A stretch of DNA of 52,659 nt, taken from Moniliella sp. 'wahieum' (Eukaryota). The translations under genes were made by a program, and so were the position numbers. The notes under the pieces were generated by a model. That model saw only the letters and a program-made list of their open reading frames with translations, ran no database searches and was not told the DNA's origin. Positions 10,255 to 45,191 of this stretch are shown here, piece by piece (the stretch's first letter is position 1; every line of letters begins with the position of its first letter). Location of the stretch: the NCBI GenBank assembly GCA_003971905.1, contig RSEE01000152.1, positions 62,001 to 114,659 on the forward strand, given 5' to 3'.

Positions 10255-11840
10255 TGTTCAAGACGTTCAAGCCTCAGGCCTCAGGCCTCAGGCCTCAGGT
10301 CTGAGGCTCAGCATGCTCGCGCTGAGACTCTCGTTCCTCTCCGCCGCGGGGCGCGCGAGAGCACCACGAGATCCGGCATATCAAATTCCCATCTCAAGGC
10401 GGAGCAACAAAGCTGTTGCTTGTGGCAGAGTGTTGCACACTCACATGCATCACAGTTCCTACCCGTCTGTATGGAGACTTCGTGGCTTGGGACTCCCAGC
10501 CTCTTCATTGACTCATTCGTCGCCGCGTAAAGAAAATGAGTCTTGTGCCTCCTGAGGTTCAGTCCTCAGGCTGAGGCCTAGGACCTGTTTTGAGGGTTGA
10601 AGTTCAAAGTTCTCAAGGTACGTTCAAGAGGCTTGCGGCCTGTGACGCGTGGACGCCTTATCGACCTGATCATTAATCAGTAACGTTAACCACATATCTA
10701 TCGGGTATACTGTCAACGTAGTCAACGTTTATACCCTGATAATCTCGATAATCGATAACTGAATATGTCTATCAACCTGCCGCCACACGTACACGTATAC
10801 CTCCGTACCCTATAGCGCCCAACCGTAGTGTTAGTTTTGCGTTCATGCTTCAAGCTTCAAGCTTCACAAGCACATTCACAAAAACACTCATTTAGATATG
10901 GTAGAAATCACGAGAAAATGCCTTTGCGGACTTCGGAGGCAATGGTGCGCATTTTGATGTTGAAGTTAACCACGTTAAACGAAGACCAGCAAGTTTGTAA
11001 GTCACGAGATCACCGGGATCATCAGCACTATAGATTAGCCGCTAATCACTACTAGTCATGCTAGTCACTAGAGTTACTAGACACTAGCCACTACTCAGAA
11101 GATTCAATATTCAGGCCTAGGCCTCAAAACGTCTTGCATCCGGCACCCACCCGCCACTAACACGCCACATATATACTCAGTCCTCACTCCCATCGGGGCC
11201 GTGCTCATCCCGATCATATCGATGATTCTTTCCTGTACACATATGTACACGTCGAGTGCTCACACATTAAAATAAACAGCTCCTTACTATATTAGCTTCA
11301 TTGAGATGTTTCCAATATCCATGTCTTGCTACACGCGCTCCCGGCAGGACGTTTGCAGCGGGGCAGGATCTGTCAAAGAGAGTGTCAAACAGTTGGACAG
11401 AAATGGTACATGGTGCATGGCAAGCCAACCGTGTGCGCGCCCTTCGCCACTCGAAACCTGAGGCGGGGTCTGAGGTGCCGGTGCCTGTTGTGAGCCTGTT
11501 GTGAGGCTTGATCGATGATGGATCACGATCAACGTCAACGTTCAACGTTCAACGTCCACATTCAACGTTCAACGTTCAACGTTTAACGTTCAACCCCGCA
11601 CCCTCCTGTGCAACACGTTGCGCGTGATGCCGTCGGTTGGATTCCGAGAGAGGCCGTACTTCCGGTGCCCATCATAGCGAGCGACCGCGGAGGTCCGCAG
11701 CGGTTTTGGCGGGGTACGGGCGGTACGGGCCACACTTGCCCAACTAAAGAACAGACAAGATCTCAAAAGCGGGTTTGCCCTACAGCGTTATACGAATAGT
11801 ATGAATGACATGCCACTGAGAGTGACTAGTGACTAGTGAC
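10255..11840. repeat. Cluster of 7-bp-period palindrome arrays (AGGCCT-C, AAGCTT-C, AACGTT-C, ACTAGT-G)
   Basis: AGGCCT at 10276/10283/10290; AAGCTT at 10852/10859; AACGTT at 11537/11544/11564/11571/11578/11585; ACTAGT at 11825/11832. Confidence 0.9.
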
Positions 11841-15302: not shown

Positions 15303-16637
15303 TTATCTAGCCGTTTGGTGGGCGGCGAGGCCGTTAGTCATCTCTTCTTCTTCTTCATCGCCATCGTCATCGTACTCTTCATCGTCATCGTCATCGTCAT
15401 CCGACACCGGTACCTCCGCCCCTTCCTGTGCATGGTCCAGCGCTACGTTGGCCTTCCGTTGCATTTCGGCCGGCCGAGCAGGGCCGGGGGTGTGATAGAG
15501 GCTGTGGCAGCGGCTGTAGCCCTTGTTCGGCTGGCAAAGCGGGGCCAGGGTTGTAATCTCCTTGTGGCTCCTGTCGTGGCTCCAGTTGGGGCATCGGCTG
15601 GGGCTCTTGTTCGGGCCGGGCGGGGGGGGTGGGTTGGTACGAGCTTCGGAGCGAACAGGAATGCGAACACCCTGCTGTGCCAGGGTGGCGCGACAACTCT
15701 GTTGCTGGAAACTGACCAGGATATTGGCGCGGGGGTTGTAGCATGCTGTGTGTGGATTGGGCAAAACCAAACGCAACAAACATCAGTAAGCCTACCACAC
15801 TGGTTTTTTCCTCGCCCTCCTTCTCGCATAGCGAAAGAACACTAGAAACTGTCGGGAAGGAAAAGGGGGGGAGGGGGGGAGGTATAGGGAGAAGAGGGGG
15901 AGGGACGTACTGAATTGAGGTGTGTACATGCGCACCACGATCGAAGTCACTCCTTCCGATGCGTTTCCATCCAAGTTCAGCGCCGAAAGGGAGAGAAGAG
16001 ACGATAGTTTCCTACTTCCCTCACACTCAAGTCGGGCAAAAACAAAAAAAAGTCCAGCCTCTCCGTCCAGATCACGACAATGTAGGCCGAGCTGATGGGC
16101 GTACCAAGTAAGTTGCGCATATACTGACGCGTGTTGTTCATCGGCACTGGAGTACGGGGCCTCCTCTCACCATTATACGCGGCGGCGGAACCGGGTATTG
16201 CCGTTGGCCTCCTACCTCGTGCGGACGAAGCGCGTCGGCATGTTGCCGGACTGGCTGTAACTGGGGTTGCTGCTGCTGCCATTGCACTTGGTACTGATGA
16301 CCCTGTGATATTGCTGATGGTCTTGGTACTGATGACTCTGATATGCTGGTGGTCTTCGTACCGGTGATCTTGCTGGAACCGGTGGTCTTGGAACCGGTGG
16401 TCTTGGAACCGGTGGTCTTGGAACCGGTGGTCTTGAAACCGGTGGTCTTGGTACTGGTGGTCTTGGTACTGGTGGTCTTGGTACCTGTGGTTGGTACCGG
16501 TAATCTTGGAGCTGGTGATCCTGGTATTGCTGTACTTGCTGCGATTGCGGTTGCGGTTGCTGCTGGGGGGGCAGTGGTTGCCCTTGCGGTTGCTGGTGGA
16601 ATTGCTGTGATGTTGCTGCTGCTGCTGCTCCTGTTGT

Positions 16638-16677
<40 letters not shown>

Positions 16678-17665
16678 GATGAAGGCGGATGGAGCACCCG
16701 GATGCGCGCTCTACGCTCCAATCCTCTCTAGGAGGAAGTGTGGCAATGGGCAACCGTGCGTACTCTAGTATATCCTCCCCGCCATCGGCCAACACTCGTT
16801 GGGCCGGCGTGGGTACTAGGCTCTGTGCTAGGGTCCGTACTAAATTCCGTACTAGGTTCCGTGCTAGGCACCGCCTCGGGCTCACGGGGGGTTCGGTGCG
16901 GCACAAATGCGGGGCCTACCAACGGACGAAGCGGAGGGGAATGAATGGGGGGATATCGAGTCCTCGTCATCGTCGTGGTTCAAAGTGAGCAACATGCTAG
17001 ATGTGAGCGTGCCAGATTCCACCAGCTCGGCAGACAGGGTGAGAAAGGAAGTGTCAAAGTGGCTTGCATGAGGAAACCAAAAGGAGGGTTAGGTTCCGGT
17101 CTCGTCTCCTTCTAAGTGCCTGGGTGCTGGAACGAGAGAAGAAACGGTTATAGGAATCAAGGACGTACAGTAGGTCTACATCTCGTCCGTCGCAGCATGG
17201 TAAATTCGCAGGCGGACAATGGTAGGTGGAGACAAGGGCCGTCGGTCCTGATTGGACCAAGAGAAGAGGAGAAAGGCCGGGTTAGTGGAGGTGACGGATG
17301 TACCGAGAGCGGTATTTGACTGTCTGTTGCAGTGCAAGACAGGGAAGAGGGAGAAAGGGATCCACTTACCTTGTCACCATGTGCTGCGATCCGTCCCCGC
17401 AGCGGGGATTGCTCAAGAATAATCTCGTACGCGTTTCCAAAGAAAAACCAATGCACACCACACCTAACCGTTAGACACCGACCGAGCATACACCCACCCG
17501 AACCAAGCAACGCGCCACAGCGCTACCGAGAATACTCACAAGCCTAATGCGTTCCTTGAGCGCGTCCCTCGGGCAGGACATCGCGACCGCTCTTGCCAGA
17601 GCGACGGTGGCGTGCTGATCGCCCGGGTGATTATCAGGAGGAGGTTGGGGCGCGGGCGGGTCCAT
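15303..17665 (-). CDS. Velvet-family regulator with a discontinuous (VelB-like) velvet domain
   Basis: N-half reconstructed across introns: YEIILEQSPLRGRIAAHGDK|DRRPLSPPTIVRLRI...|HFDTSFLTLSAEL. C-half: MRNLLGTPISSAY...DLSVREVGNYRL...YTPQF|TCYNPRQYPGQFPATELSRH.AQQGVRIPVR. Introns at 17248-17369, 17063-17168, 15746-15910, plus one starting at 17539 (acceptor unclear). Acidic C-terminal tail. Confidence 0.88.
16355..16485 (-). repeat. 15-bp coding tandem repeat, (Y/F)QDH(Q/R) pentapeptide, inside the velvet insertion
   Basis: About eight units of gaaccggtggtcttg / gtactggtggtcttg on the + strand. Confidence 0.9.
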
Positions 17666-18965
17666 TTTATCGGAGAGCAAGTGGAGGATCCGTGATGGTG
17701 GTGACAAGCGAGTGCGACAGGAAGCGAGGGTGTCGAGGAACAGACGAGGCGGACGGGTGCAGACCGAGAGGAAGAAGAGCGACGGGGACAGCCAAGAAGC
17801 GCCAGCGTGCGTTTCTTCCGTCGTCGGCTGGGCCGCGGGGGAAGGGAGGGGGGGCAGGGGTGGTGGTGGTGGCGGTGGCGGTGGTGGCCGGAGTGGGGAG
17901 GGGGCGGTGGGGGAGCACAGACAGCGTCCAGCGCCCAGCGGCTGCGCGGACGTGCTGTGGGGGCAGCAACGTGCCAGGCGACCCAGAAGACCGGTAAGAC
18001 CGTCGTGGCCACTGGCGGGTGCAGCTCCGTCGCATAAAAAGCTTCTCTGCCCGCGCCGGCGATTAGGAGGAGCGCGTCGGCGGCAGCGTGGACGCCCAGC
18101 AGCAGGTGCGCATCCGCGCAACGGGATGGATCGAGCGCGCGTCGGGGGGGCTGCGCGGTGCCTCTGGCGGTGATGGCGACGGCCGCTGGGTGCGAGCCGG
18201 TGTGGCTGGCTTCCTTGACAGCAGACCCATAGTGCGCGGGGCAGGAGAGCGCACAGGAGGCTGTCTATGGTCGATGCATGTGACCCGAGTCGAATTGGCA
18301 ACTGATTTCAATTTGGGGTGCCGGTCCCTTAAGCGGCTGAAGCTTGGAGCTTCAAGTGAAGCTTCTCCTATGCACGCCTCCTGCCTCCTGCCTTGCCTGG
18401 CGTGTTGCCCAGCTGGAAGCAGCCGCGCGCAGGTCACCAGGTCACGGGGGGCGTCGCTCGTACCGACGATGACCAGTGGCCTTCTTGCGTTGGACATTCG
18501 TTGAATTTTGCCGGCACCGATCCGAATCGACGCCAGAGCATAGAGCGCCACAGCCAAAGCCGGATGATCGATGAAGCTCGCCCCCACCCCAACCGACACA
18601 TGCAACGGTAAGTAGCAGACAAGCCAGGTAACGGCATGGTAACCATAGTAGCCAAGCCAAACCGCCGTCTGGCGCCGTCGCATTCCGACCCGCTCGCATG
18701 GGTCTCTTCTGGCCTCGTGCCCGATCCGGACTCGAGACTCGTCTGAGTGCTCAGGGCCCGCCTCTGCACCGGGCTCCTTCCCGTCCCTCTCCCGAGCACT
18801 CTCGGCAAATGCACCAGCCGCAGCACGCCCAGGGCCAAGACTGTGCCACATGCCCGTGCGTATTTGCCTGTGGCCATGCTGTTGCGCGTTGCGCACGCCT
18901 TACGTATCGCCCATGCTTGCCTGGGCTTGACGCGTTGACGTTGAAAGAGACAGCCTATCGTATAT

Positions 18966-20010
18966 CAGGCTTCAAGCTTCAAGCTTCAGCGCCTCTTCAG
19001 CGCTCAGCGCCTCAGGCTGAGCGCTGAGGCTTAGCGCTAAGGCTTAGCCCTGAGGTTCTCAGACTGAGATCTCAGATCTCACCGGCACCCCACGCCACTG
19101 CGTCACCGGCCACCTGCTCCCCGTTCCCCCCCCAACAGTCTATATATATATAGGCCTTACCTGCTTTTTTGGCTCTCGTTCGCGTTACACGTTACTAGTA
19201 CTCACCCTATTATTCTCGCCAGCGCCATGCCCACGCATGGCCAAGCATGACGCCGTCTGCGGCCTGGCACCTAGTCCCCTATAGTGACCCTATAGTGACC
19301 CGCCAGTGACCCTACGACGGGAGGATCGATGAACGTGATAAACGCGCAGGCGCTCAGATGCTCAGGATGAACGATGAAGCTCATCGATTTAACCTACCGT
19401 ATAGTATTCAACGAATTCTTTATTCCTCTTCGGTTCCTCGCTCTTTCCGACTTCGCTCCTCTCCTCTTCTCTTCTCTCCCCTCCTCTCCCTCCAAGCTCC
19501 ACCTCCGCGCGGCTCAGGAACAATGAAGAAGTAAAACACCGTTGTCGGCTATAACCAGGTATACTATAGTAGCTATCGACAGCTTCTAACTCCTGAGACC
19601 CTAAGGCCTAAGGCTTAGGCTTGAAGGCTGCTCAGGCGCTCAGGGCTCAAGCTTGAAGGACACAGCGGAAATGCTCCAACAATTTGAAGCATGAAGCTTG
19701 AAGGTCAGCGCTCGCTGAGCGCTGAACGTGCTGAACGTTGAACGTACGCTGAACGTACGCTGAACGTACGCTGAACGTTGAACGTTGAACGTACACTGAT
19801 TCAACGTTGAACGTTACGTTGAACGAACCGCACCAATTCACACGCACTACACACACCCGAGATGTCTGTGCTGTGGCCTTTTGCATACCTGCCCCCCTCT
19901 CTTTGATCTCTCTGCCTCTCTCTGCCTCTCTGCCTCTCTATGCCTCTGTCGATGTGTTTTGCACCAGTGTTGCACCTCTCATTAGGCCTTAGTACTTAGT
20001 GGCCTTAGTA
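18966..20010. repeat. Cluster of 7-bp-period palindrome arrays upstream of the velvet gene
   Basis: AAGCTT, AGCGCT, AGATCT (19067/19074), AGGCCT, AACGTT and AGTACT units, plus an 11-bp derivative (gaacgtacgct)x3 at about 19740-19772. Confidence 0.9.
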
Positions 20011-20028
20011 CCTTTCACTTAAAGTCTA

Positions 20029-20630
20029 CTAGAAGACCACCGGGCCTACGGCCCGGTCAGCTGGGGCTTCGCCCCAGCTGTGCTGCGTCGCCACCTTAGC
20101 CACCGGTCCGCCTTCGCCACCGTAGCCACCGTTCCCCCCCATCGCCACCTTAGCCACCGGTCCACCGTCGCCATCGTAGCCTCCATTCCACGCTGGAGGA
20201 ATTTTATCACCCATGTGCATGGCTGAGCGCGCGGGGTGGGTTGCGGGCTGCGTCACCCGCGCAGCGAACGCAAACAAATAGGTAAGCATGACGTAAAGTA
20301 AAAAGGGGGTCTGCGATATAAAAAGAGAGATTAACGCGTAACGCGTAACGTCTATCGAATATCGCGACCCACAGACCGCTGTGTATCTCCACTGGCAGCA
20401 CCCTGGCCCAATTTGATTTCCCGGCAGAGGGATTCAACAGCTCATCTATCAGGCTCAGGCATGTGTGGGAAGTCACGTGATTTGTAGCTAATAGCTGGTA
20501 GTATAGTAGCAAACCAAAGTGCAGCGGTACTACAAAGTAAGACCATAGTAGACTACGTTGTAACGCGTAACGCGCAACGTACAACGGAACGGCGGCGGGT
20601 AAAAGTATGAAAAGTAAGTACAAGTAGTGA
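20029..20630 (-). mobile_element. Non-autonomous Helitron-like element, copy A
   Basis: The minus strand ends ...CAGCTGGGGC-GAA-GCCCCAGCTG ACCGGGCC-GTA-GGCCCGGT GGTCTT CTAG|T, i.e. two GC hairpins followed by CTAG and a T. It has an internal GGTGGCTA(A/C)GGTGGCG minisatellite. About 20029-20250 is homologous to copy B. The 5' end at 20630 (TCACTAC...) is a guess. Confidence 0.7.
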
Positions 20631-27999: not shown

Positions 28000-29321
28000 T
28001 TGGGGCTGGCGAGTGGGAATGATACTGCGGAATCTCTATCTCTAGACCACGTCCATTTCATTGACAGAGCTTAAGGCTGGGACAGGGAGAACGCTACGTC
28101 TAAACCTAACCGTTCATCTTGCGGGGGTTACTTGGAAGCGCCACCAAGGTCAAGGAACCAGTGGGATCGCCAGGATATCAGGACCCTCCGGTTCTCGCCA
28201 TCCGGTCCCGTAATTAAAATCCCAAATGGGGTGTGCACCACACTTTTACATCAGCATCGCGTAAGCCACCGGGGCGCGGCCAGCCAGCAGCCAGCGCGTA
28301 TCGGTGATATTATTTTCCAGTGTGGAAGGTTCCAGCGTGGAACGGTGGACCGGGGGAACGGTGGCTACGGTGGTGATGGTGGGTCAGAGGAACGGTGGCT
28401 AAGGTGGCGACACAGCACCAAGCTGGGGCAAAGCCCCAGCTGACCGGGCCGTAGGCCCGGTGGTCCTCCTTGTGTGAAATTTATCAACGATGCTCAGTCC
28501 CACAGAATCGCAAAACCAAAACGAGACAGATGCCGTCAGTTCCATTGACCCAACAGCAAAACCGCTTGATCAGCTTGATCTCCATAAACATGTGGCGTGT
28601 TGCTATCTTTTGGATATCGTTCGACCCCAGGTGGACATTCCGATATGTCATTACCTTGCCAACAAAACAAGAGGGGGGAGGAAAGAGGCAAAGGGGAAGG
28701 AACGTACCTCGGCCGGCTTCTCCGCTCAGCCTGAGCGCTCAGTAAGCTCGGTCAATGTCTCGCTTCCTGTCACCTGACGTTACTTGTGTTTCGTCTTGAG
28801 CGGCCCGAAGACAAAATAGCGGCACGCAGGAAAGTCAGTCATGTTCGCACCGAGGAAAGGAGAGGCGCTAGTATCGAGTACTTCATCGCTGTCCGACCTG
28901 GTCGCATGCTACTCATCCCCCTCGAAGCCAGCGAAGGCAGCTCGAGCGGCCGCCTGCCTGCCCCCCGGTACCGAATGGTCGTATCGAGAAACACATCAAT
29001 GTTGAATCCCGATGGACATTTGATCGAGTCCGCCAAGGTCCGATCAATCTACGCTACCTATGTTACGGAAAGAGCACGCGCGAGCCCACTACGGGTTCTG
29101 ACGGAGCTTTGACGTTCAAGTACAGATTGTTGGATTTGGCCAAAAGAGGGAGCGGGGAACGAGTTCAAGTCAGCAGACTGGGCTTCGCCCCGTGTGCCTA
29201 CAGGGACCGTGGAAATCATCAGAGGGTGGGAAGGGTAGGAGAGGGACGATGACTGGGCTTGCGCCAGAGCGGTAGGGCGTGTGGAGACCTGGGAAGGGAC
29301 TGCCTGCGTACGCACATCCAT
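28000..29321 (-). pseudogene. NSE4: Degenerate Nse4/EID (SMC5/6 kleisin) homologue interrupted by a Helitron-like insertion
   Basis: Collinear Nse4-like blocks across frames: LAKSNNLYLNVKAPSEPVVGSRVL, FNIDVFLDTTIRY, GRTAMKYSILAP, VFGPLKTKHK*RQ, AEKPAE|..SNDIQK, IVDK [insertion] KSVVHT.HLGF*LRD, SIIPTR. Apparent stops at 28780-28782, 28726-28728 and 28214-28216. Recognised by eye only. Confidence 0.55.
28251..28472 (+). mobile_element. Non-autonomous Helitron-like element, copy B (222 bp)
   Basis: Proposed boundaries A|TC (28251) to CTTG|T (28472), with no TSD. It has the same double hairpin (28421-28441 and 28443-28461) and minisatellite as copy A, in the opposite orientation. The terminal CTAG is degenerate (CTTG). 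Confidence 0.68.
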
Positions 29322-31783: not shown

Positions 31784-31992
31784 TGTCACAGGCCTAGCTA
31801 GCGATGCTGGCGATGGTCGATGGAGATGGCATTCAAGAGCTAAGGAGAGCTAGAGCTATGGGCCTTGATAGGCTCCTGGCCTGGAGCCAGTGGAAACCGT
31901 GGAAGGGTCGGAACTCACTGCCCCGGTGCACTGTGTGGATCGGGCCACGTGTCACTGAAGGCCGATGGGCTCTAGACCACTGGTGGTCAACA
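31784..31992 (-). repeat. 3' LTR (209 bp)
   Basis: tgtcacaggcctag...tggtggtcaaca, a direct repeat of 36823-37033. Confidence 0.97.
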
Positions 31993-32010
31993 CCCCCGCT
32001 GGCCAGAGGT

Positions 32011-35000
32011 CTATGGCACGATGGAAGGTTGTAACGTCCTCAAGCTGAGGCGAGGCAAGTTGGCCAGGAGTGAGACCTTAGTGGCTGGTTTGGTGAGGAT
32101 GTCGGCCGGGTTCTCGTTTCCAGCATGTGCGCGATTTTGACTTCGCCGAGTCGACATGCTGGCGTACGTTGTGGTACCGGATGTTCAGCTCACGTAGTTT
32201 GCCCGTGCTGCCCACTTTTTCGGCCAAGGCAAGTGCCGCCATGTTGTCGCAGTACCAGTGTATGGGCTCGTCTGAGGTGATGGCACCGAGCTCCAGTAAG
32301 ATGTTTTAACGTAGTTCGCATCAATGAGGCCCTCATATCCCGCGTATATTCGGCCGCAGCAGTGTTGGTGACGCTCTTGGGTTGACGCACGCTCCTCCAG
32401 GAACTGGAACCCCGTAGACGAAAAAGCAGGCATCCCGACGTGGAACGCCATTGGTCAGGGTCTCCAGCCAGGTCGGCATCAGTGTATTAGCGCGAGAGCG
32501 GGTGCGTCAGGCGGGTGTTAGTCGGAGACCGTAGCCCTTGGTACCGTAGAGGTAGCGGAGGAAGTTTGTTGCCGCAGCGCGGTGGGCCTTGGAGGATCGG
32601 CAGTTGCTCGGCTTAGAGCTGAGATGCCGAACAGCGCATCAGGGCGGCACATGCGGGCAGCCCACAGCCCAGATCCTACTTGGCTCTGGTAGTCGCGTCT
32701 CTCGGCGGGCAGTGCGGGCGGTTCGGGGTCGGTGCGCGCGGGGATCATCTTGCTGGGGTGGGGGAGGCCCATAACCAGGGGTGGCGGAACCTCATGTTTG
32801 GCAATGGATTCCTCAATGAATTTTGGCTGGCTAAGGTACAGTTTCCCGTTTATGGTGTCGTACTGGCAGCCAAGATGGTAGTGTAGGGGGCCGTTTCCCC
32901 GCACCTCGATATGGGTGTTGATCTCAGTGAGGAAGGAATCGTAGCGTGCGTGAGACGTGCAGGCGATGAGAAGATCGTCGGTGTGCACGGCAAGGAGGAC
33001 CGTGTCGCCTTTACGGGGTCGGATGAACAAGCACGGCTCAGCCAGAGATTGTACAAAACCCATGTCTCCGCGGAGCAAGTCACGGATGAATACCGCCCAG
33101 TTTGCGCCGGATTGGTGGAGGCCATATAGGCTTTTCCGGAGACGCCAGACCTTGCCTTTTTCCTCGGGAAAGAATGGGGGTGGGCGGAGGTACACTTTTT
33201 CCGTGAGGGGAGCGTTCAAATAGGCAGAGTGCACATCAGCAGTGAAGAGGTGGAGGCCGAACTTTCCAGCAAGGGCGATAAGGCTGAGGATGGCAGGAGT
33301 GCGCACGGCAGGGGCGAATGTTTGTCCCCATGTGTCAGCATCCTGCTGGTGGCCCCCGGCAACGAGACGGGCTCGGTAGCGTAGGAAATTTCCGTCCGCG
33401 TCCGTTTTGGTGTTGATGCGCCACAGACCAATCAGCAGCTGCGCGTCTGGAGGGGGCGTGACGACTTCGAATGTGCCGTAGCGGGCTAGGGTGTCGATTT
33501 CCGTGCGCATCGCCTCCAGCACTGGTTCGAATGAGGGGTGTGATTGGAGGCCCTTCATTGTCTTGGGTGCAACAGGTACTCCGTCCTTGGTGAGCTGGAT
33601 GCGCTCGTGCGGCCCTGGCTCGCTAAGGGCGATCATCGCCTTGTATTCAGGCGGATGGAGACCGTCGCTGTACGCGGCAGGGCAGTGTCGGGCAGTGGGA
33701 AGCGTAGGCCGATCGCAGGACTACGACTACCGTCAGGGAGGGGAACCGGAGGCAGCGCGGCAGCGTGTGCGTGGAAGTCACCATCATGAGGTCGTCCGCT
33801 ACGGGGAGCTGTGCCCAGTCAAGGTCAAAACGGCGCTGGTGGGTCCGGGCGGGGTACCGTCTGGTGGTGGGGGTGGTTGGATGGGTGTCGTTTTGTCTTG
33901 CGATGGTCGCGTCAGTATCAGTGTTGATTCTCGGTGGTTGTTGGGATTTGCAACTTCAATTTTGTTCATTTTTCTTCTCCCTTTTTGGTTTCAGTGTCAG
34001 TCATAGTTCTGTCAGGCAGGGGTTGAGCGGGGAAGCGAGATACGTCAGGCGGAAAGCGGTCGGGGAAAACCTCGTGGTATTGGCGCTGGGTCCACTTGTA
34101 TGGTTTTGCCCATTGGGATCGGAACGTGCCCATGGACGGGTCGTACACAGCCCAGCGCCAACCCTTTGTACCTCGACGCGTCGTACCCGACGAGCATGGC
34201 TTCGACAGCCCGCGGACTGAGCTTATGGTCACGTTGGTCCTGGGCCAGGTGAAGGTACGCCAAGGATCCGAAGGCGTGCATTGGCAGCGGTGGGGGTGAC
34301 CCCTTGTACAGCTCAGCCCGAGATTGTGTGCCCTGGCGTGGAGATGTCGGTGGCATGAGGTTGTGCGTCCAGCACCCTGCCAGCAAGGCATCCTGCCACC
34401 AGTTTGATGTCGGGAGGCCCGAGGCGATGATGAGTTGGCGCGCGCGTGTGGTGATTGCCTGGATGGCTCGCTCGGCCACCCCATTTGATTGACTTTGGCC
34501 TGGTATGGTGGTTTCCGTCGTGATACCTTCGGATTCAGGAACGGACGGAGTGCGCTGGTGAGCTCGGGGGCATTGTCTGTCTTCAAGATGCGAAGCAGAC
34601 GTCCTTTCCGATGCGTTGCTCGCGGGTGATGAGTTTTTTCAGCTCCGCCGTGGCTTGTCCTTTCGTCTTTAGGGGAACAGCGAAGGTGTAACGGCTCCAG
34701 TCATCAACCGCGACCAGGGCGTATCCATGTCCCATGCCAGTGATGCGAGGGAGGTCGACTACGTCGGCGTGCAGTACTTCGAAAGGACGTTCCGAAATGC
34801 GGCGGCCGTGGCGCGAAGGGTGGCTGGGCGCTTTGGCCAGAGCTTTTGTGCAGGTGGGACAATGCCAGAAGGGGCGGATGCGTCGGATTTGGGCAGGGCT
34901 GACGCGGAGGCTCGCTCGCGCGTTGGCGGTTAGTGTCGGGAGTAGGTCTAAGCGGCGTGGTTGTACTGTTGGTTGAACGTACATGACGTGCTCGATGGTG

Positions 35001-36674
35001 TTGGCTGCGGTGTGTTGGGTGGCGACGGCAGCTTTGGCCGCGTGTTCGTTTGTGGGTGTCGGTTTCGGGACGATGTTCAGCTTGTATGAGGAATCCGCGA
35101 TTTGGTGATATTTGCCATGCTTGTCATTTAACCAGATACCTTTTCGGTGGGGGGCGAACCAGGATGCGTGGCCTGCGTCACTTATTTGCGCTACGCTCGT
35201 GAGATTGCTTGCTATGCCGGGGACGTATAGACTGCCGGGTAGGTCTACATGGATACATTTGCCGTCGGTACACTTGATACCGATGCTACATGTTCCGCGT
35301 CCACTGGCTTTAATATGTTTTCCATCAGCGATTTCGATTGAGCGGTTGCTGGGCTTGAGGGTTTTGAATACCCTGAGATCCTTCCAGATGCTAGGATCCG
35401 CGCCCGAGTCGTGACGAGACTGGATGTCCTGGTTGCCCGCGAGTTCCTATTTGTCAGATAGGGCAAGGTCCACAGACAGGGTCTCCCCTTCGGAGACGTC
35501 GTCTTCGGTGGCAATGTGCGCTCGCGCGGAGCTGTTGCGGTGCCATTTGTTGTTCGAAGGAACCCCGGTGTGGCCGGACGGCTTTCTCGCAAGAGCACCC
35601 CCCTACGGGGAGATGCACCGCAGGAGGACCCCCGCTATGCTGCTGGGATCCCGCGCTGTCGTGTTTGCCAGCGCCCGAGTTGGCGGTCCGGGGGTGACGG
35701 CCCCGGTACGGAATTCTGTACTCTGGGTCCGCTGGGATTCTCTCCACGTCTTGCATTGTCTCCGCCAGAGTCATGTGCTCTAGGCGGCGACGGTCACCAG
35801 GGTCGCGGAGGGCCCCGACGAGGATACGGCGGAATTGCTCGTCCGACATCGGTGTGGTTGCGCTGATCCGGTTGCGGAGCGTCCCCATTTCAGATAGGAA
35901 CTCGCTCCCGCTGCGCCGGTTTTGGTAGCAGTGGTGAAAGCGACTGGACAATTCATGATACGTCTTGCAGTCGACCGTACCGTATTTGTTTCGCAGGGCA
36001 CGGAGCAAGTCAGCTGACGTGTCAACGTTGTCCTGTGCAATAATGGCAGATTGAACGTCGTTCGGGAGGTGGGACCACAGAAGGTTCTGGAGGCGTAGAT
36101 CGAGGGACGAGTCGTAGTGTGGTGACGATGGACCGGAGCGAACGATGTCCTTCGCGGCGGGGTGGATGCGGTCCAGGATGTTGAGGATGGAGGGCTCCCA
36201 GAGCACATATTCGGTGGGTCGCGGAAGGCGTCCTTGCGCGTCGCGTTGGTACGCTCGATCTCTTTTGACGCGCGTTTCTCAGCGTGGCGAAGCTCGGCCA
36301 TGTCCTCACTCGCGGATGCAAGGGCCTCACGGGTGTTTTGCGGCTTCGTGAATTCAACGGCCAATACATATTTCTCCAACGCGAGGGTGAGCGTGTAGAT
36401 CCAATTTTCCTTTCCGCCCGGTGTTTTCTTGCTCTTCGGTCCATACGCCGCCGTGTGTGCATCCGTAGCGAACGAGCGGCATGTGGAGCGGAGATTGTCA
36501 GCGCTGGTGGGCTTGAACGCGCGGGTGCTTGCGAGGAGGTTGTCTCTGACGTCGGTGAGGGCCTGTTGCCAGGTCGGGTCGGAGACAGGGGTGGTGGGTT
36601 CGTCGTCGATGTCCTGCGCCTCTTCGATGACAGAGACTTCGGGAGGAGGGGTGTTTTCTTCCAGTTCGGGGCAT
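32011..36674 (-). CDS. Copia gag-pol polyprotein (frameshifted in this assembly)
   Basis: Gag (LLRALRNKYG), protease DSGA near 35405, integrase (LHADV, VDDWSRY, KTDNAPEL, NGVAERAI), RT (RARLVAGG, DVHSAYLNA, LRKSLYGLHQSG, HTDDLL) and RNase H (STSG, AEY, CDNMAA, NPADILTK). Confidence 0.92.
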
Positions 36675-36822
36675 GGTGGCTGATTTTTCCTTTGTTTTTT
36701 TTTTGAATTGGTTGGTGTGTGGTGCCGATGGTGGCGTTGGGGTGGTGGTGGTGACGGTGGGCGCCGATGGTGGTGCTGAGTATTGATCCTTTGCGCCAGT
36801 GGGGTGCTTCAGATTGTAGCTC

Positions 36823-37033
36823 TGTCACAGGCCTAGCTAGCGATGCTGGCGATGGTCGATGGAGATGGCATTCAAGAGCTAAGGAGAGCTAGAGCTATGG
36901 GCCTTGATAGGCTCCTGGCCTGGAGGCCAGTGGAAACCCGTGGAAGGGTCGGAACTCACTGCCCCGGTGCACTGTGTGGATCGGGCCACGTGTCACTGAA
37001 GGCCGATGGGCTCTAGACCACTGGTGGTCAACA
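36823..37033 (-). repeat. 5' LTR (211 bp)
   Basis: Identical to the 3' LTR except for two single-base homopolymer-length differences. Confidence 0.97.
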
Positions 37034-37960
37034 ACATTCGGCTCAGCATCCGCCCCAACGCATGATGCGCATCGGATTGTCCGCGGTGCTTTGACCAACC
37101 TTGCCTTTGACGACGGCTGTGCTTTTTGACGGAGGTGGACTGAGGATCCTGATGACGTGTGGCATAATGAAACACGCGTGATGCACGATGAGTTGGTTCC
37201 ATCGCGTTAGAATGTTTTCTTGGCGCAGTGAGGCGCTGCGCGGCCGGAGGCTGAGCGGCCTCCGCGAAGCTGAAGCTAGCCTGAGGCTTCCCTGAAGCCT
37301 GAAAACTGGAACTGTGGAAGACGACGGAATTGGGAAGCTGGAAGCGGCAAGCTTTACTTTGCTGCGCATGGGGTAATTAAACTCGCAGTGTCGTCGTGCG
37401 CCGGCCGGCCGGCCACGGCTCGGGATGAGGTCATTGCGGGGGGAAAACAGGTGCGGTGCGGCCAGCCACCGCCGCCACACCACGCGCAGGCCCAGTGTCA
37501 CCGCGCCATTGTCCCATCCCGCACGGGGGCAGTCTGCGCCGCTGGACGGCTCCGGTCGTCTGTCATCATGTCATATAACTTGCATTGCACTTGCCCAACC
37601 ACCGCCGTCGCCTCGCACGGCCCCCTGCTCGCCATCGGCATGGCGCAGGCAAAGATGACCAGCGAACGTGCCAAGCTCACTCTCACCCATTGCCCTCCCT
37701 CCCAGCACGCCCCGCCAGGGCCCATCGCGACACTGCCCAGGTCGTACTCTCTCGGCTGATGCGTGCGCTGATGCATATCTCGATCTCCGCCGCACCCACC
37801 TGCCCCCTACGCGCCCACAGGCCCCCCCTAGCTAGCCAGCCCACTGCCCAAAGCGCAGATGAGAACCCCCTCAGCGGGGTGGGAAGAACAGCAGGGCTGA
37901 GCAACGCGCACACAGCCCCCCTCCCTCCTTCTTCCTCGCCTCTCCTTGCCACGACGAGCA

Positions 37961-37969
37961 TATATAAAA
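37961..37969 (+). promoter_or_regulatory. TATA box of the secreted-protein gene
   Basis: TATATAAAA, 115 bp upstream of the ATG at 38076. Confidence 0.65.
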
Positions 37970-38075
37970 CGGTGGCACTCTCTCCGTCACAGAATGATAC
38001 TTTCCACCCCCCCAGCCTCAGCCCTGTTCCGTCGCCACTTTTCTACCACCGCCCTTCCACCCGACCTCTGCCACC

Positions 38076-38972
38076 ATGTTCTCCAAGACCTTTCTAAGCG
38101 CGCTTGTTGCGTCCGCCTTGGTCGCTGGCCAGGTGGCCGCGTTGCCACAAGCTGGGTCCGGCTCGGACTCGTCGTTCTCGAGCGCCACGAGCACCGCCTC
38201 GGTTTCGTCCGCGTCGTCTCCTTCCGCGTCCAGCTCGAGTGCCTACGGTTCGTCGTCCAGTGGTCGGTCTTCCAGCGCATCCTTCAGCGGTTCGGCCAGC
38301 GCGACGTCCTCGGGTCTCGGCCCGCTGCCCACGGGCCGGCCCGGGAACTCTTCCACCGGCACCGCGATTAACGTTACTGCCCTCACCACCACGGAGACCA
38401 ACCAGACTGGCTTTGAGTGCTGGTCGATTTCGGAAGATGTCAATGTGACTTCGAGCGCGGCCGGGGTGGCGGTTCTGTATGGGTTTGAACCGACGGGCAA
38501 TGTGACCTTCTCTCTCTTCTCGCCGGGCTACGATGCAGGTCACGTCAATGCGTCTACGTCTTAGTATGTTTCTCCCTTGCTTGAATTGCCTTCGGCTGTG
38601 TTCATCGCGGAAGGGCCGTGCTAACCTACGTTGCTTGTGCATTTCTTTTCATTTCTCAGCTGGGCGTACATCACCTCGGTCTGGCTCAGTTCTCTCTCGA
38701 CGCTTCCAACGCCACCTCGTCCAACGGCACCAACGCCACCCTGCCTGTGGCCAATGCCACTTTGTCCGAAGCCGAGGTTGCCTTTGTCTCCCCGGCGCGT
38801 TTGGTCTCGTGCTGATCGACGCCAACGCAACCGCACCCGTCTCGTTCAACCTCTCCTTCCCGGGCCCGAGCCAAACCACGTTCCTGTCCACGGGCGTTAC
38901 CGGTACCCCCAACCACACCGTCCTCCCACGGGGCAGTGCAATGCGACGAGCCAGCTGGCGGCGCTGGCGTGA
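38076..38972 (+). CDS. Small secreted protein: Ser-rich stalk plus fungal cupin-like domain
   Basis: Signal peptide MFSKTFLSALVASALVAGQVAALP, Ser-rich region, then INVTAL...FECWSI...PGYDAGHVNA..|YWAYITSGLAQFSL...FGLVL...FPGP...PNHTVL.TGQC. Intron 38564-38659 (GTATGT..CTAAC..CAG). Confidence 0.75.
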
Positions 38973-40145
38973 GCTGGCACGTGAAGCACGCCCATCAGCG
39001 GGAGCTGAGCATACGATGGATAGCATCCGTCCACGGTGTGGTGGTGGAGCGAGTGCGATTCTGCGGGCAGCATTTTTTCCTTAAATTCCCTGGATCCTTC
39101 TCATAACCCACATGATCGGCCATCCCGATTGTGTGGTGCGATTAGCTGTTTGCGTGAGCTCGGCCGCGTTGCCGTCGTAGGGAATGCGGGGAACGCGAAC
39201 GAGCGTCCATACTATGGCTTCAACCTCTTTCTTCCCATGCATCTTTTATCCCAACGTGAGTACTATTGTTGAGAAAACAAATCAATTCTTCTTCTTTTCA
39301 AACCTCCTCTATAGCTATCCCGGATGAGATGGCCATCCTTCCTTCGGGGCGTGGTTGCCGGGCCCGTAAAAGCCGTCGTAAGCGAGGAGATCGCAGACTG
39401 CTACAACGGTTATTGTACATGCTCATGGATGAGAGATGTCAACTGCTTTTTGCATGGAAGGAGTGGCCACTACAAGGGCCTTAATGTGGGCTAACTTTTT
39501 GGTTTCGGGATGAGAGCACAGTGAGGTGGGCGGGCGGGGGGGGACTAGGAGAGGGAAATGAAGGACTGGGAAAACCGTGCATGCAGCAGGAGGTACAACA
39601 AAGTGAAGGTGCGAGACAAGGGCCAGAGAAGACAGTTGAAACTATGCAAAGAGCGAGTAGAAGAGCCGACCGAACCACTCAGCCTCGTTGGCTCGGCCGC
39701 AGAGAGAAGGAAGGAAGACGAAATGCGCGGGAGAACACCGTTACCTGAACCTAGCCCCATTGGGGGACCCCCAACAGCAAGGGAAGAGAGAGGAAAAGAA
39801 GTGTTTTTGTCTCTGGCGTCATATATCATAGGAGTGGGGGGGGGGGGGGGGACTTTTGAGGCCAGACGAATGCAACCTTTGGAAACTGAGAGAGGATGGG
39901 AAAGAAGATGACCAAGATGACGGACTATTGTGATTGGGCACACCGGCCACAGCGCCTAACTAACCACATCCACATTTAGGGGCTGGACGAAGTAGGACGC
40001 CAGAGGGGCAGAGTTGCACGAGGCAGCCTTAGAGCAAGGGGGACCCTGGCTGAGGACCCCGGCAGCTCATTGGAGTAGTGGGAAAAGGTAGGGGAAAGAA
40101 CAGTCACCGGTGCTCCCAGAGGGGCGGGCCAAGCCGGAGGTTAGC

Positions 40146-43638: not shown

Positions 43639-45191
43639 AGGGCAGGTGGTGGTGACTTGGGTTTATGGGTTAAGGTTGCGATGGACAGCGGACAGAGATG
43701 CTTTCATCTTTCAACTTTCGGTCTTTCTTCGGTCTGAGCGGCCTCCTGGCCGATGCACCGCAGCAGCTGGTAGCAGCAGCAGCACCGATCGCCCGCCATC
43801 TGGGTCACCCATCGGGCTTTACGAAGTTTCAGCTCCACGCTGCACGATTAGATAGGCTTTGAAATTTGACATGTCACTAGTGCCACTTGAATATGATCAC
43901 CAGCTGCCCTGCCGTGCGCAGGCGCAGCAGGGGCCCTGCATGGCGCCCCAATCGCCCGTCTGTGGGCGTGTCCCAGCTCCAGCGCCAGTCACGCGTGTCA
44001 CATAGTGTCACATCCTGTCACATACAGGCCGCAGCTCCCCCCAGCCGCCACTCCATTCATTAATCGAACCATTAATCATGCACGGTGTCTGATGACATGG
44101 ATGACACACGAGGAAGTGCTATCGGATGACTACCCATCTTCATCACAGAGCATGGCTGCACAACTAATTTTGAAGCTTTTGAAGCTAGTTTTCCCGAGCG
44201 CCTTTTTGGAAGCTTGAGCTTGAGCACTGGAGGGGCAAAGGAACGCTGCGTCTACACCAGAAGTATATCGTACTGGACCCCGCGCGGGTTGGGACGCCCC
44301 TGGGGCTGCCGCCCGCCCCTACTCTTCGTCTCTATTTCGGAAACCATATGTAGCTGTGGTCGATCTAGACCCTATTGCACCTGCTTCGCCCTCAGGCTGA
44401 AGACTGGGAGCCTCAGTACTGAGCTGAACACGCACAATGTCAGACTTTGCCCGAGGGAAAACCCACGCCGACGTTGTCGGCGCTCACCGTGACTTCCCCC
44501 CACACATTGGGTATTGTATAGTGCACCCGCGCGCCAATGAGGCCTAGTAGGGAATGCTGACCCGCCCCGGGCCCCTATCCCATTTTCGTCGCTGTGGTCT
44601 CTGGTCCTAAAATGAGATAGTCGGGCTCTCTCGTCCGCATCGGTGCGACCGCCAGTGCTTCTATTTTTGATTTGGAGGAAAGAGACATATGTGGAGGGGG
44701 AGTTGCTGCTCATCACGTCCAAGCAGATCTGCCTTTCGTCCACAGGTTGGCGTTCCCATCGCCCTCGCGGGCACCTTCCTCACCTACCGACGGACATTCT
44801 CAGCAACAAGTCGCCATACTGATGGGACAGGTCCTAAGCAGCACTTATTGGACTCTCTTCTCTCGTCAAGGATCGCAATGAGATCCGTATAGGTAATACT
44901 GGGCATTGAACTTCTCGACGGAAATGGATGCCCCGTCGAGAGGATACAGACGACCAAGAGCTGGTTTCACCGTGGATTGAAGCTGGACTAAGACGACAGC
45001 TGGTAAGCTAGGAAATGCCTGGGTCTCAAACATAGATTGACGCAAGGATGATGGTACAACGAAAAGGACAAAAGTGGGAGGCAACTTAATGCTCCAAAGC
45101 GCGACTGGGCTCAAAGGAACATGGCGGGCATCATGCATCATGAGAACGATAGTAAGCTCGTACATCATCATTGATTATATCAATGGTCGAA

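Follow-up and report, generated by a model that had tools for sequence, protein, structure and literature searches.

Dissimilar palindromes that stand side by side in the same 7-bp phase are a consequence of an insertion rule at T-N-A triplets and not a separate system. Under this rule, a T-N-A gains a 7-bp unit whose 4-bp palindromic core mirrors the two bases on the left or the right of the triplet, and neighbours are mixed because one T-N-A received such insertions more than once. Both the rule and the two-sidedness of the donor flank were observed directly. The core sequence is thus not free, as a preliminary description of this DNA had proposed, but follows the two bases beside T-N-A.

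The analysed window and its paired copies

The window, meaning the whole stretch of DNA analysed (52,659 nucleotides; G000:C152:62001-114659), belongs to an assembly of 69.5 Mb in 223 contigs. Since its Pfam matches comprise KRE6, velvet, INO1, Zn2Cys6, and a copia-type RT, we judge the window to be fungal DNA. For the KRE6 piece, the best matches among named relatives belong to the Ustilaginomycotina (Tilletiaria, Parajaminaea, Violaceomyces; ~40% identity), which makes the source a smut-related lineage without a close annotated relative.

Parts of the assembly are duplicated, with ~4% substitutions between contigs C152 and C162 and ~2.7% between C1 and C25. These are either haplotypes or duplicates, and they served as natural pairs for comparison. 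Two other sampled loci have second copies only as 70–82% paralogues; two further second-copy searches were dominated by an LTR repeat, one of them with partial 89–92% matches. The alignment of C14 to the window is confined to 37036–39672, and no close second copy was found for 43860–43881. One-base indels between copies number 1,115 in ~240 kb, which suggests noisy base calls. The following features of the window are referred to below.

15977..16906 (minus strand): velvet-domain ORF (PF11754, E 3.3e-06); coordinates are ORF bounds
18965..18993: homotypic AGCT array
19982..19998: mixed chain TTA GGCC TTA GTAC TTA, containing the pair at 19984
19989..19995: 7-bp unit present in the window and absent on C162; its placement slides between 19988 and 20000
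19996..20011: continuation TTA GTGGCC TTA GTAC, a 9-bp-period unit common to both copies
20029..20330 (minus strand): Helitron-like insertion of 302 bp with TC...hairpin-CTAG ends, between A and T, without duplication
~31784-37036: copia-type LTR retrotransposon, with RVT_2 at 32518-33636 and identical start sequence at 31790 and 36829
43858..43881: triple mixed chain TT TGA AATT TGA CATG TCA CTAG T

The mixed chain at 19984 lies in a non-coding stretch upstream of the minus-strand velvet-domain ORF. Its neighbour, the Helitron-like insertion at 20029–20330, is missing in the C162 copy, has at least 41 genome matches to the query stretch, and stands outside the T-N-A rule. A second short Helitron-like insertion (~28034–28472) shares the hairpin end of the first and is also missing in the C162 copy. 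At ~11026–11126 of the window, a short segment with many T-N-A units seems to have been inverted or replaced on C162. Elsewhere in the sample, L031:414-1281 is a solo-LTR-like repeat of ~870 bp with TGTCAC...GTGACA ends, a 5-bp duplication, and at least 38 other full-length matches.

Mixed chains at the individual sites

Two of the three examples put forward in the preliminary description read exactly as given, namely AGGCCT-T-AGTACT-T at 19984–19997 and ACATGT-C-ACTAGT at 43869–43881, the latter preceded by AAATTT-G at 43862, so that three palindromes stand in a row. The third, AAGCTT-C-AAGCTT-C-AGCGC near 18974–18992, had to be discarded as a mixed example. In 18974–18993 the third hexamer is AGCGCC, which is no palindrome, and only a homotypic pair remains, within the AGCT array.

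The locus around 19984 reads CC TTA GGCC TTA GT GGCC TTA GTAC on C162 and CA TTA GGCC TTA GTAC TTA GT GGCC TTA GTAC in the window. The copies differ here by one whole 7-bp unit (GTAC), not by two paired substitutions. A paired, symmetry-preserving change from AGGCCT to AGTACT, previously thought necessary, is therefore not needed, as C162 shows the locus without the GTAC unit as one 7-bp indel. Within the chain, GGCC mirrors the left flank CC of the C162 copy (CA in the window), and GTAC mirrors the right flank GT. Two alternatives are possible at this site: the unit may have jumped in from the TTAGTAC that lies 16 bp downstream, or C162 may have lost it. The continuation at 19996–20011 would have arisen either as a 9-bp scar or by slippage duplication. 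In the triple chain at 43858–43881, AATT mirrors the left flank TT, and CATG misfits the present right flank.

Mixed pairs exceed chance in one class of palindromes

Whether mixed pairs exceed chance depends on the class considered: the excess is marginal for all hexamers in the window but strong for A-NNNN-T palindromes joined by T-N-A. Heterotypic pairs of 6-bp palindromes at distance 7 number 19 in the window against 12.5 ± 3.5 in 100 dinucleotide block shuffles; 19 was reached in 5 of these shuffles, and in 22 of 100 when 6-mer counts were kept. Homotypic pairs at the same distance number 18, against 0.4 in shuffles. Palindrome pairs in the window offset by 3 and 5 bases were also frequent (34 and 27 vs ~14).

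In a 503-kb sample (C152, C1, and 19 other 10-kb loci, with second copies left out), 35 heterotypic A-NNNN-T pairs lie at distance 7 and 24 at distance 14, against 3, 7, 10, 10, 3, 2, 7, and 4 at distances 6, 8–13, and 15. The remaining palindrome pairs show no excess (118 at distance 7 vs 95–131 elsewhere), and the effect is confined to A-NNNN-T hexamers. Two such palindromes joined by one base form a T-N-A junction.

Framed accordingly, the core of T-N-A-(4)-T-N-A is a palindrome in 74 of the window's 164 cases and in 264 of 710 cases in 303 kb, the latter a 5.95-fold enrichment. Among the symmetric triplets only TNA is enriched, with 0.6–1.0-fold values for the ANT, CNG, and GNC control frames, and core lengths of 2, 6, and 8 bp in TNA frames give 1.16-, 0.52-, and 0.57-fold. 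All 16 of the 16 palindromic cores are in use (303 kb), and 71 of the 74 palindromic sites in the window lie outside Pfam-hit ORFs.

Identical neighbour pairs in T-N-A phase number 70 in the 503-kb sample. The related suggestion that neighbouring cores stay self-complementary more often than random ones holds in part: 17 of 111 non-identical neighbours in this phase (15%) are palindromic vs ~6% by arithmetic, but 94 are not.

Palindromic cores mirror the bases beside T-N-A

Isolated units were defined as palindromic units with an identical triplet on both sides (n = 184; 503 kb). The core matches the left flank in 57 of them, the right flank in 62, both in 28, and neither in 37; hence 147 units match at least one flank, against 24.4 expected. 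In the 16 mixed chains, both flanks are matched in 7, only the right in 4, only the left in 1, and neither in 4, giving a total of 19/32 flank matches. Random flanks (20,000 draws) yielded on average 0.06 both-matches and 2.0 matches in total, with maxima of 2 and 9. The chain at 19984 was scored as right-only; if the C162 flank is used, it matches on both sides. One exception is a polymorphic CTAG unit between CGCG and CG in the C1/C25 pair, which is palindromic and not flank-mirrored.

The seed unit is thus part direct and part inverted copy, and, as had been argued before, slippage alone cannot make a mixed pair. A P-nucleotide-like inverted copy of terminal flank bases is present in 147/184 units and in 10 of the 31 seven-base indels between copies described below. 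Both ends donate mirrored bases, as seen in the left and right counts above (57 and 62) and in the corresponding splits of 22 and 14 among 9-bp forms.

Units are gained between copies and then decay

The comparison of the two copy pairs covered 239,563 aligned columns with 7,193 substitutions and considered pure indels with 10-base anchors. Indels of 5, 6, 7, 8, and 9 bp number 10, 20, 31, 11, and 6, with the peak at 7 bp. The 31 seven-base indels comprise 10 non-duplicative insertions that follow the rule, 6 duplications of palindromic units, and 15 outside the strict rule; a direct copy of the adjacent unit accounts for 8/31. The indel at 19989–19995 is excluded from the 31, since nearby substitutions break its anchor. 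The events can be polarised in an LTR repeat. Among 39 copies of one piece, 5 have a rule-type unit of their own that the other copies lack, which aligns as a clean 7-bp insertion in two cases and inside a 10–11-bp insertion in three, so that the events are gains.

Once present, the units show no upkeep of symmetry. Of the ungapped aligned sites, 138 have a palindromic core in one or both copies; among these, 115 are identical, 21 have lost symmetry (19 by one change and 2 by two changes), and 2 are palindromic in both copies yet different, both of which look like register shifts. Divergence between copies is 3.0–4.9% at core positions, 3.8% in the flanks, and 1.9% at the outer T and A, and 196 of 584 aligned sites hold a gap. 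Palindromic symmetry is thus generated, not maintained. The earlier proposal that form and phase are “maintained or generated” stands in its second half, through the insertion rule, and falls in its first, with symmetry lost in 21 cores against 2 that changed and kept it.

Separately, one 7-bp indel between C1 and C25 (joined C1 stretch, position 87015) completes an odd palindrome of 13 bp whose arms are 6 bp long, and resembles fold-back copying more than it does the T-N-A rule.

Longer scars and the size of the target

In the commonest product, a copy of 5 bp appears to be combined with 2 inverted bases; the overlap is 5 or 6 in 152 of the 349 frames that fit the rule. Longer forms occur as well. 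In 541 kb, 34 frames with a 9-bp period show duplication of all seven NN-TNA-NN bases together with 2 mirrored bases. Those that are not plain duplications make up 20/465 TNA frames vs 3/302, 1/1353, and 3/1580 for control triplets. The corresponding values for 8-bp-period forms are 24/327 vs 1/239, 4/986, and 2/1092, and one 11-bp form retains both palindromes (541 kb). Among the six pure 9-bp indels between copies, 3 are of scar type by eye, with an overlap of exactly 7, and 4 by a looser script. Four 9-bp-period scars lie in the window.

10256..10271: scar around TCA; all 7 bp duplicated and 2 mirrored bases added, unlike a plain duplication; overlap 7
10738..10753: scar around TAA; overlap 7
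28565..28580: scar around TGA; overlap 8
44091..44106: scar around TGA; overlap 7

Gains of 7–11 bp were seen, shorter spacers being inseparable from control triplets. In exact 14-bp duplications, the T-N-A centre falls at position 3 in 11 cases, at position 2 in 11, at positions 1, 4, and 6 in 4–5 each, and at positions 5 and 7 in 0. Because the 9-bp forms combine the full duplication with mirrored bases, both flanking dinucleotides are duplicated, and either end can add its mirror. These forms suggest a 7-bp target with a hairpin at each end; trimming of a 9-bp target by one base on each side would give the same picture.

Excision footprints as the favoured explanation

In our judgement, the units are probably, though by no means certainly, excision footprints of a transposon with a 7-bp target site duplication (TSD), later amplified by slippage. 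A cut-and-paste DNA transposon would insert at NN-T-N-A-NN and duplicate these 7 bases. Upon excision, both flanks would be sealed as hairpins, which the host would open ~2 bases from the tip before joining the ends. In the usual outcome, four bases of one end would replace those of the other, leaving a 7-bp gain that consists of T-N-A and a 4-bp palindrome derived from the left or right flank, and in a rarer outcome more of both ends would be retained, leaving gains of 8, 9, or 11 bp. As T-N-A would survive, a repeat strike would be possible, and one left-type plus one right-type event would place two unlike palindromes in 7-bp phase. Slippage would then multiply units into homotypic arrays, which ordinary substitutions would erode. 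We infer the hairpin intermediates, the transposase as cutter, and the order of events at 19984.

Flank hairpins followed by end joining are described as the route of hAT, Transib, MULE, and RAG (PMC5499845). At Ds donor sites in Candida, this route yields deletions and palindromic insertions (PMC5873905). TSDs of 7 bp are given for fungal hAT7 and Kyakuja and of 2–5 bp for the CMCT clade in the main-text passages of a further study (PMC12730594). By analogy, the pattern behaves like a flank-hairpin excision footprint and can be considered a putative member of this group.

Several observations speak against excision footprints, the failure to find an element in the ~0.84 Mb scanned among them. 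No flank is matched by 37/184 isolated units and 4/16 mixed chains, 15 of the 31 seven-base indels fall outside the strict rule, and the polymorphic CTAG unit of the C1/C25 pair is not flank-mirrored. The 264 cases in 303 kb, less ~30 expected by chance, extrapolate to ~50,000 units per assembly, which is very many for so scarce an element. Finally, published Ac/Ds footprints, with 28 types in 128 clones, are more varied than the products here (PMC5873905).

The element itself was sought in ~0.84 of the 69.5 Mb, where no candidate combined inverted ends with a 7-bp NN-TNA-NN duplication; inverted ends with 5–9-bp duplications gave only chance-like and array-to-array matches in the same ~0.84 Mb. 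Larger insertions between copies are LTR-type or Helitron-like, and none has inverted ends with a T-N-A-centred duplication. The hAT transposase profile PF05699 had 0 matches, with controls likewise silent. The EnSpm-type transposase profile PF02992 had 2 matches (C17 and C34), around both of which no inverted ends or matching duplication were found. No other copy is listed for the C34 match; the C17 match belongs to the following gene.

L082:8181-9985 and L083:1-1240 (C17), with a copy on C62: decayed EnSpm-type transposase gene (PF02992), with T-N-A arrays and an LTR piece upstream

Neither this gene nor its C62 copy was found to have inverted ends. It was also considered as a domesticated enzyme and rejected, given no codon-position bias (15/18/16) and many frameshift differences; as controls, the INO1 piece has 5/5 changes in one position, and the KRE6 piece gave an ambiguous 3/1/1.

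Alternative explanations

A host or domesticated nuclease acting without any element could make a 7-base stagger centred on T-N-A, after which the ends would undergo filling, hairpinning, or a 2-base snap-back and then be joined. Such an enzyme would suit the huge number of scars and the repeat strikes in the face of no element found in ~0.84 Mb, the recency of events that still distinguish the copies (~10 strict cases against 7,193 substitutions), and the very uniform products. We nevertheless hold it to be unlikely, as there is no candidate enzyme, the sole well-scoring EnSpm-type gene is decaying, and duplication followed by hairpinning would be two steps that a transposon naturally supplies. 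Correspondingly doubtful is the proposal that a sequence-specific T-N-A-breaking activity, be it a domesticated transposase or an unknown nuclease, is recent, genome-wide, and hairpin-repaired and writes palindromic tandem repeats into non-coding DNA.

Polymerase template switching, in which the nascent strand would fold back 2–3 bases past T-N-A and re-anneal to give a 5-bp copy and 2 inverted bases, accounts for the commonest product (152/349) and has a longer fold-back-like counterpart in the indel at position 87015 of the C1/C25 pair. In yeast, such switching has been documented for short inverted repeats (PMC8604942). We consider this origin improbable to a greater degree than a nuclease, because it predicts neither the 8-, 9-, and 11-bp forms that duplicate both flanks nor the restriction to TNA among four symmetric triplets with a fixed 4-bp core. 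Nor were the symmetry-restoring paired changes of template-switch correction seen, with 21 changes breaking symmetry vs 2 keeping it.

Selection or strand-to-strand conversion could instead keep form and phase, for instance in protein-binding sites or cruciforms, and would fit the location of 71/74 sites outside Pfam-hit ORFs and the lower divergence of the outer T and A (1.9%) relative to the flanks (3.8%). The scarcity in ORFs, however, follows from removal of frameshifts. Cores diverge like flanks (3.0–4.9%), 21 symmetry-breaking changes stand against 2 that keep it, and 196/584 sites are gapped. In addition, all 16/16 cores occur with no fixed core, and units also arise inside LTR copies, which together make this explanation very unlikely.

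Chance neighbours of slippage microsatellites, or assembly error, can scarcely be credited despite the marginal all-palindrome count in the window, some mixed pairs that look accidental (one from a 2-bp slip), and the many 1-bp differences (1,115), given 35 A-NNNN-T pairs vs 2–10, the 19/32 flank matches, and 115 sites identical in separately assembled copies; chance is refuted for the A-NNNN-T class, although single sites may be chance.

Relation to known systems and biological meaning

If the units are excision footprints, their closest counterparts are the footprints of hAT Ac/Ds, Transib, and MULE Muta1 and V(D)J coding joints, which are alike in the retained target duplication, the inverted terminal flank bases, the donor role of either end, and end joining (PMC5873905, PMC5499845). 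In contrast to these, the pattern here has a 7-bp target with a fixed T-N-A centre, one dominant length, and tens of thousands of copies; repeated strikes seed tandem repeats, and the element was not found in the ~0.84 Mb scanned. The 7-bp duplication length is shared with hAT7 of rusts and Kyakuja of Agaricomycotina, for which the main-text passages of PMC12730594 give no T-N-A-centred target and contain “hairpin” and “footprint” 0 times.

As in slippage microsatellites, homotypic arrays here gain and lose whole units (70 identical neighbour pairs; 6 duplicative indels of palindromic units), but slippage does not produce a seed unit that is part direct and part inverted copy. Template-switch quasi-palindrome mutation likewise copies nearby bases in inverted orientation, but the known cases homogenise existing arms or invert spacers (PMC8604942), whereas a gain of fixed length occurs here at a fixed triplet. 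The literature searched, which mostly excluded subscription journals, contained no description of a genome-wide pattern of this form.

These results provide a rule for seeding tandem repeats without slippage and a mutational signature dense enough (~0.8 units per kb) to shape non-coding DNA. The scars would record the past activity of a nearly vanished element, and with the target fixed as 7 bp with a T-N-A centre, the enzyme becomes searchable. They also carry a warning that a dyad motif in a fungal promoter need not be a binding site but can be a scar.
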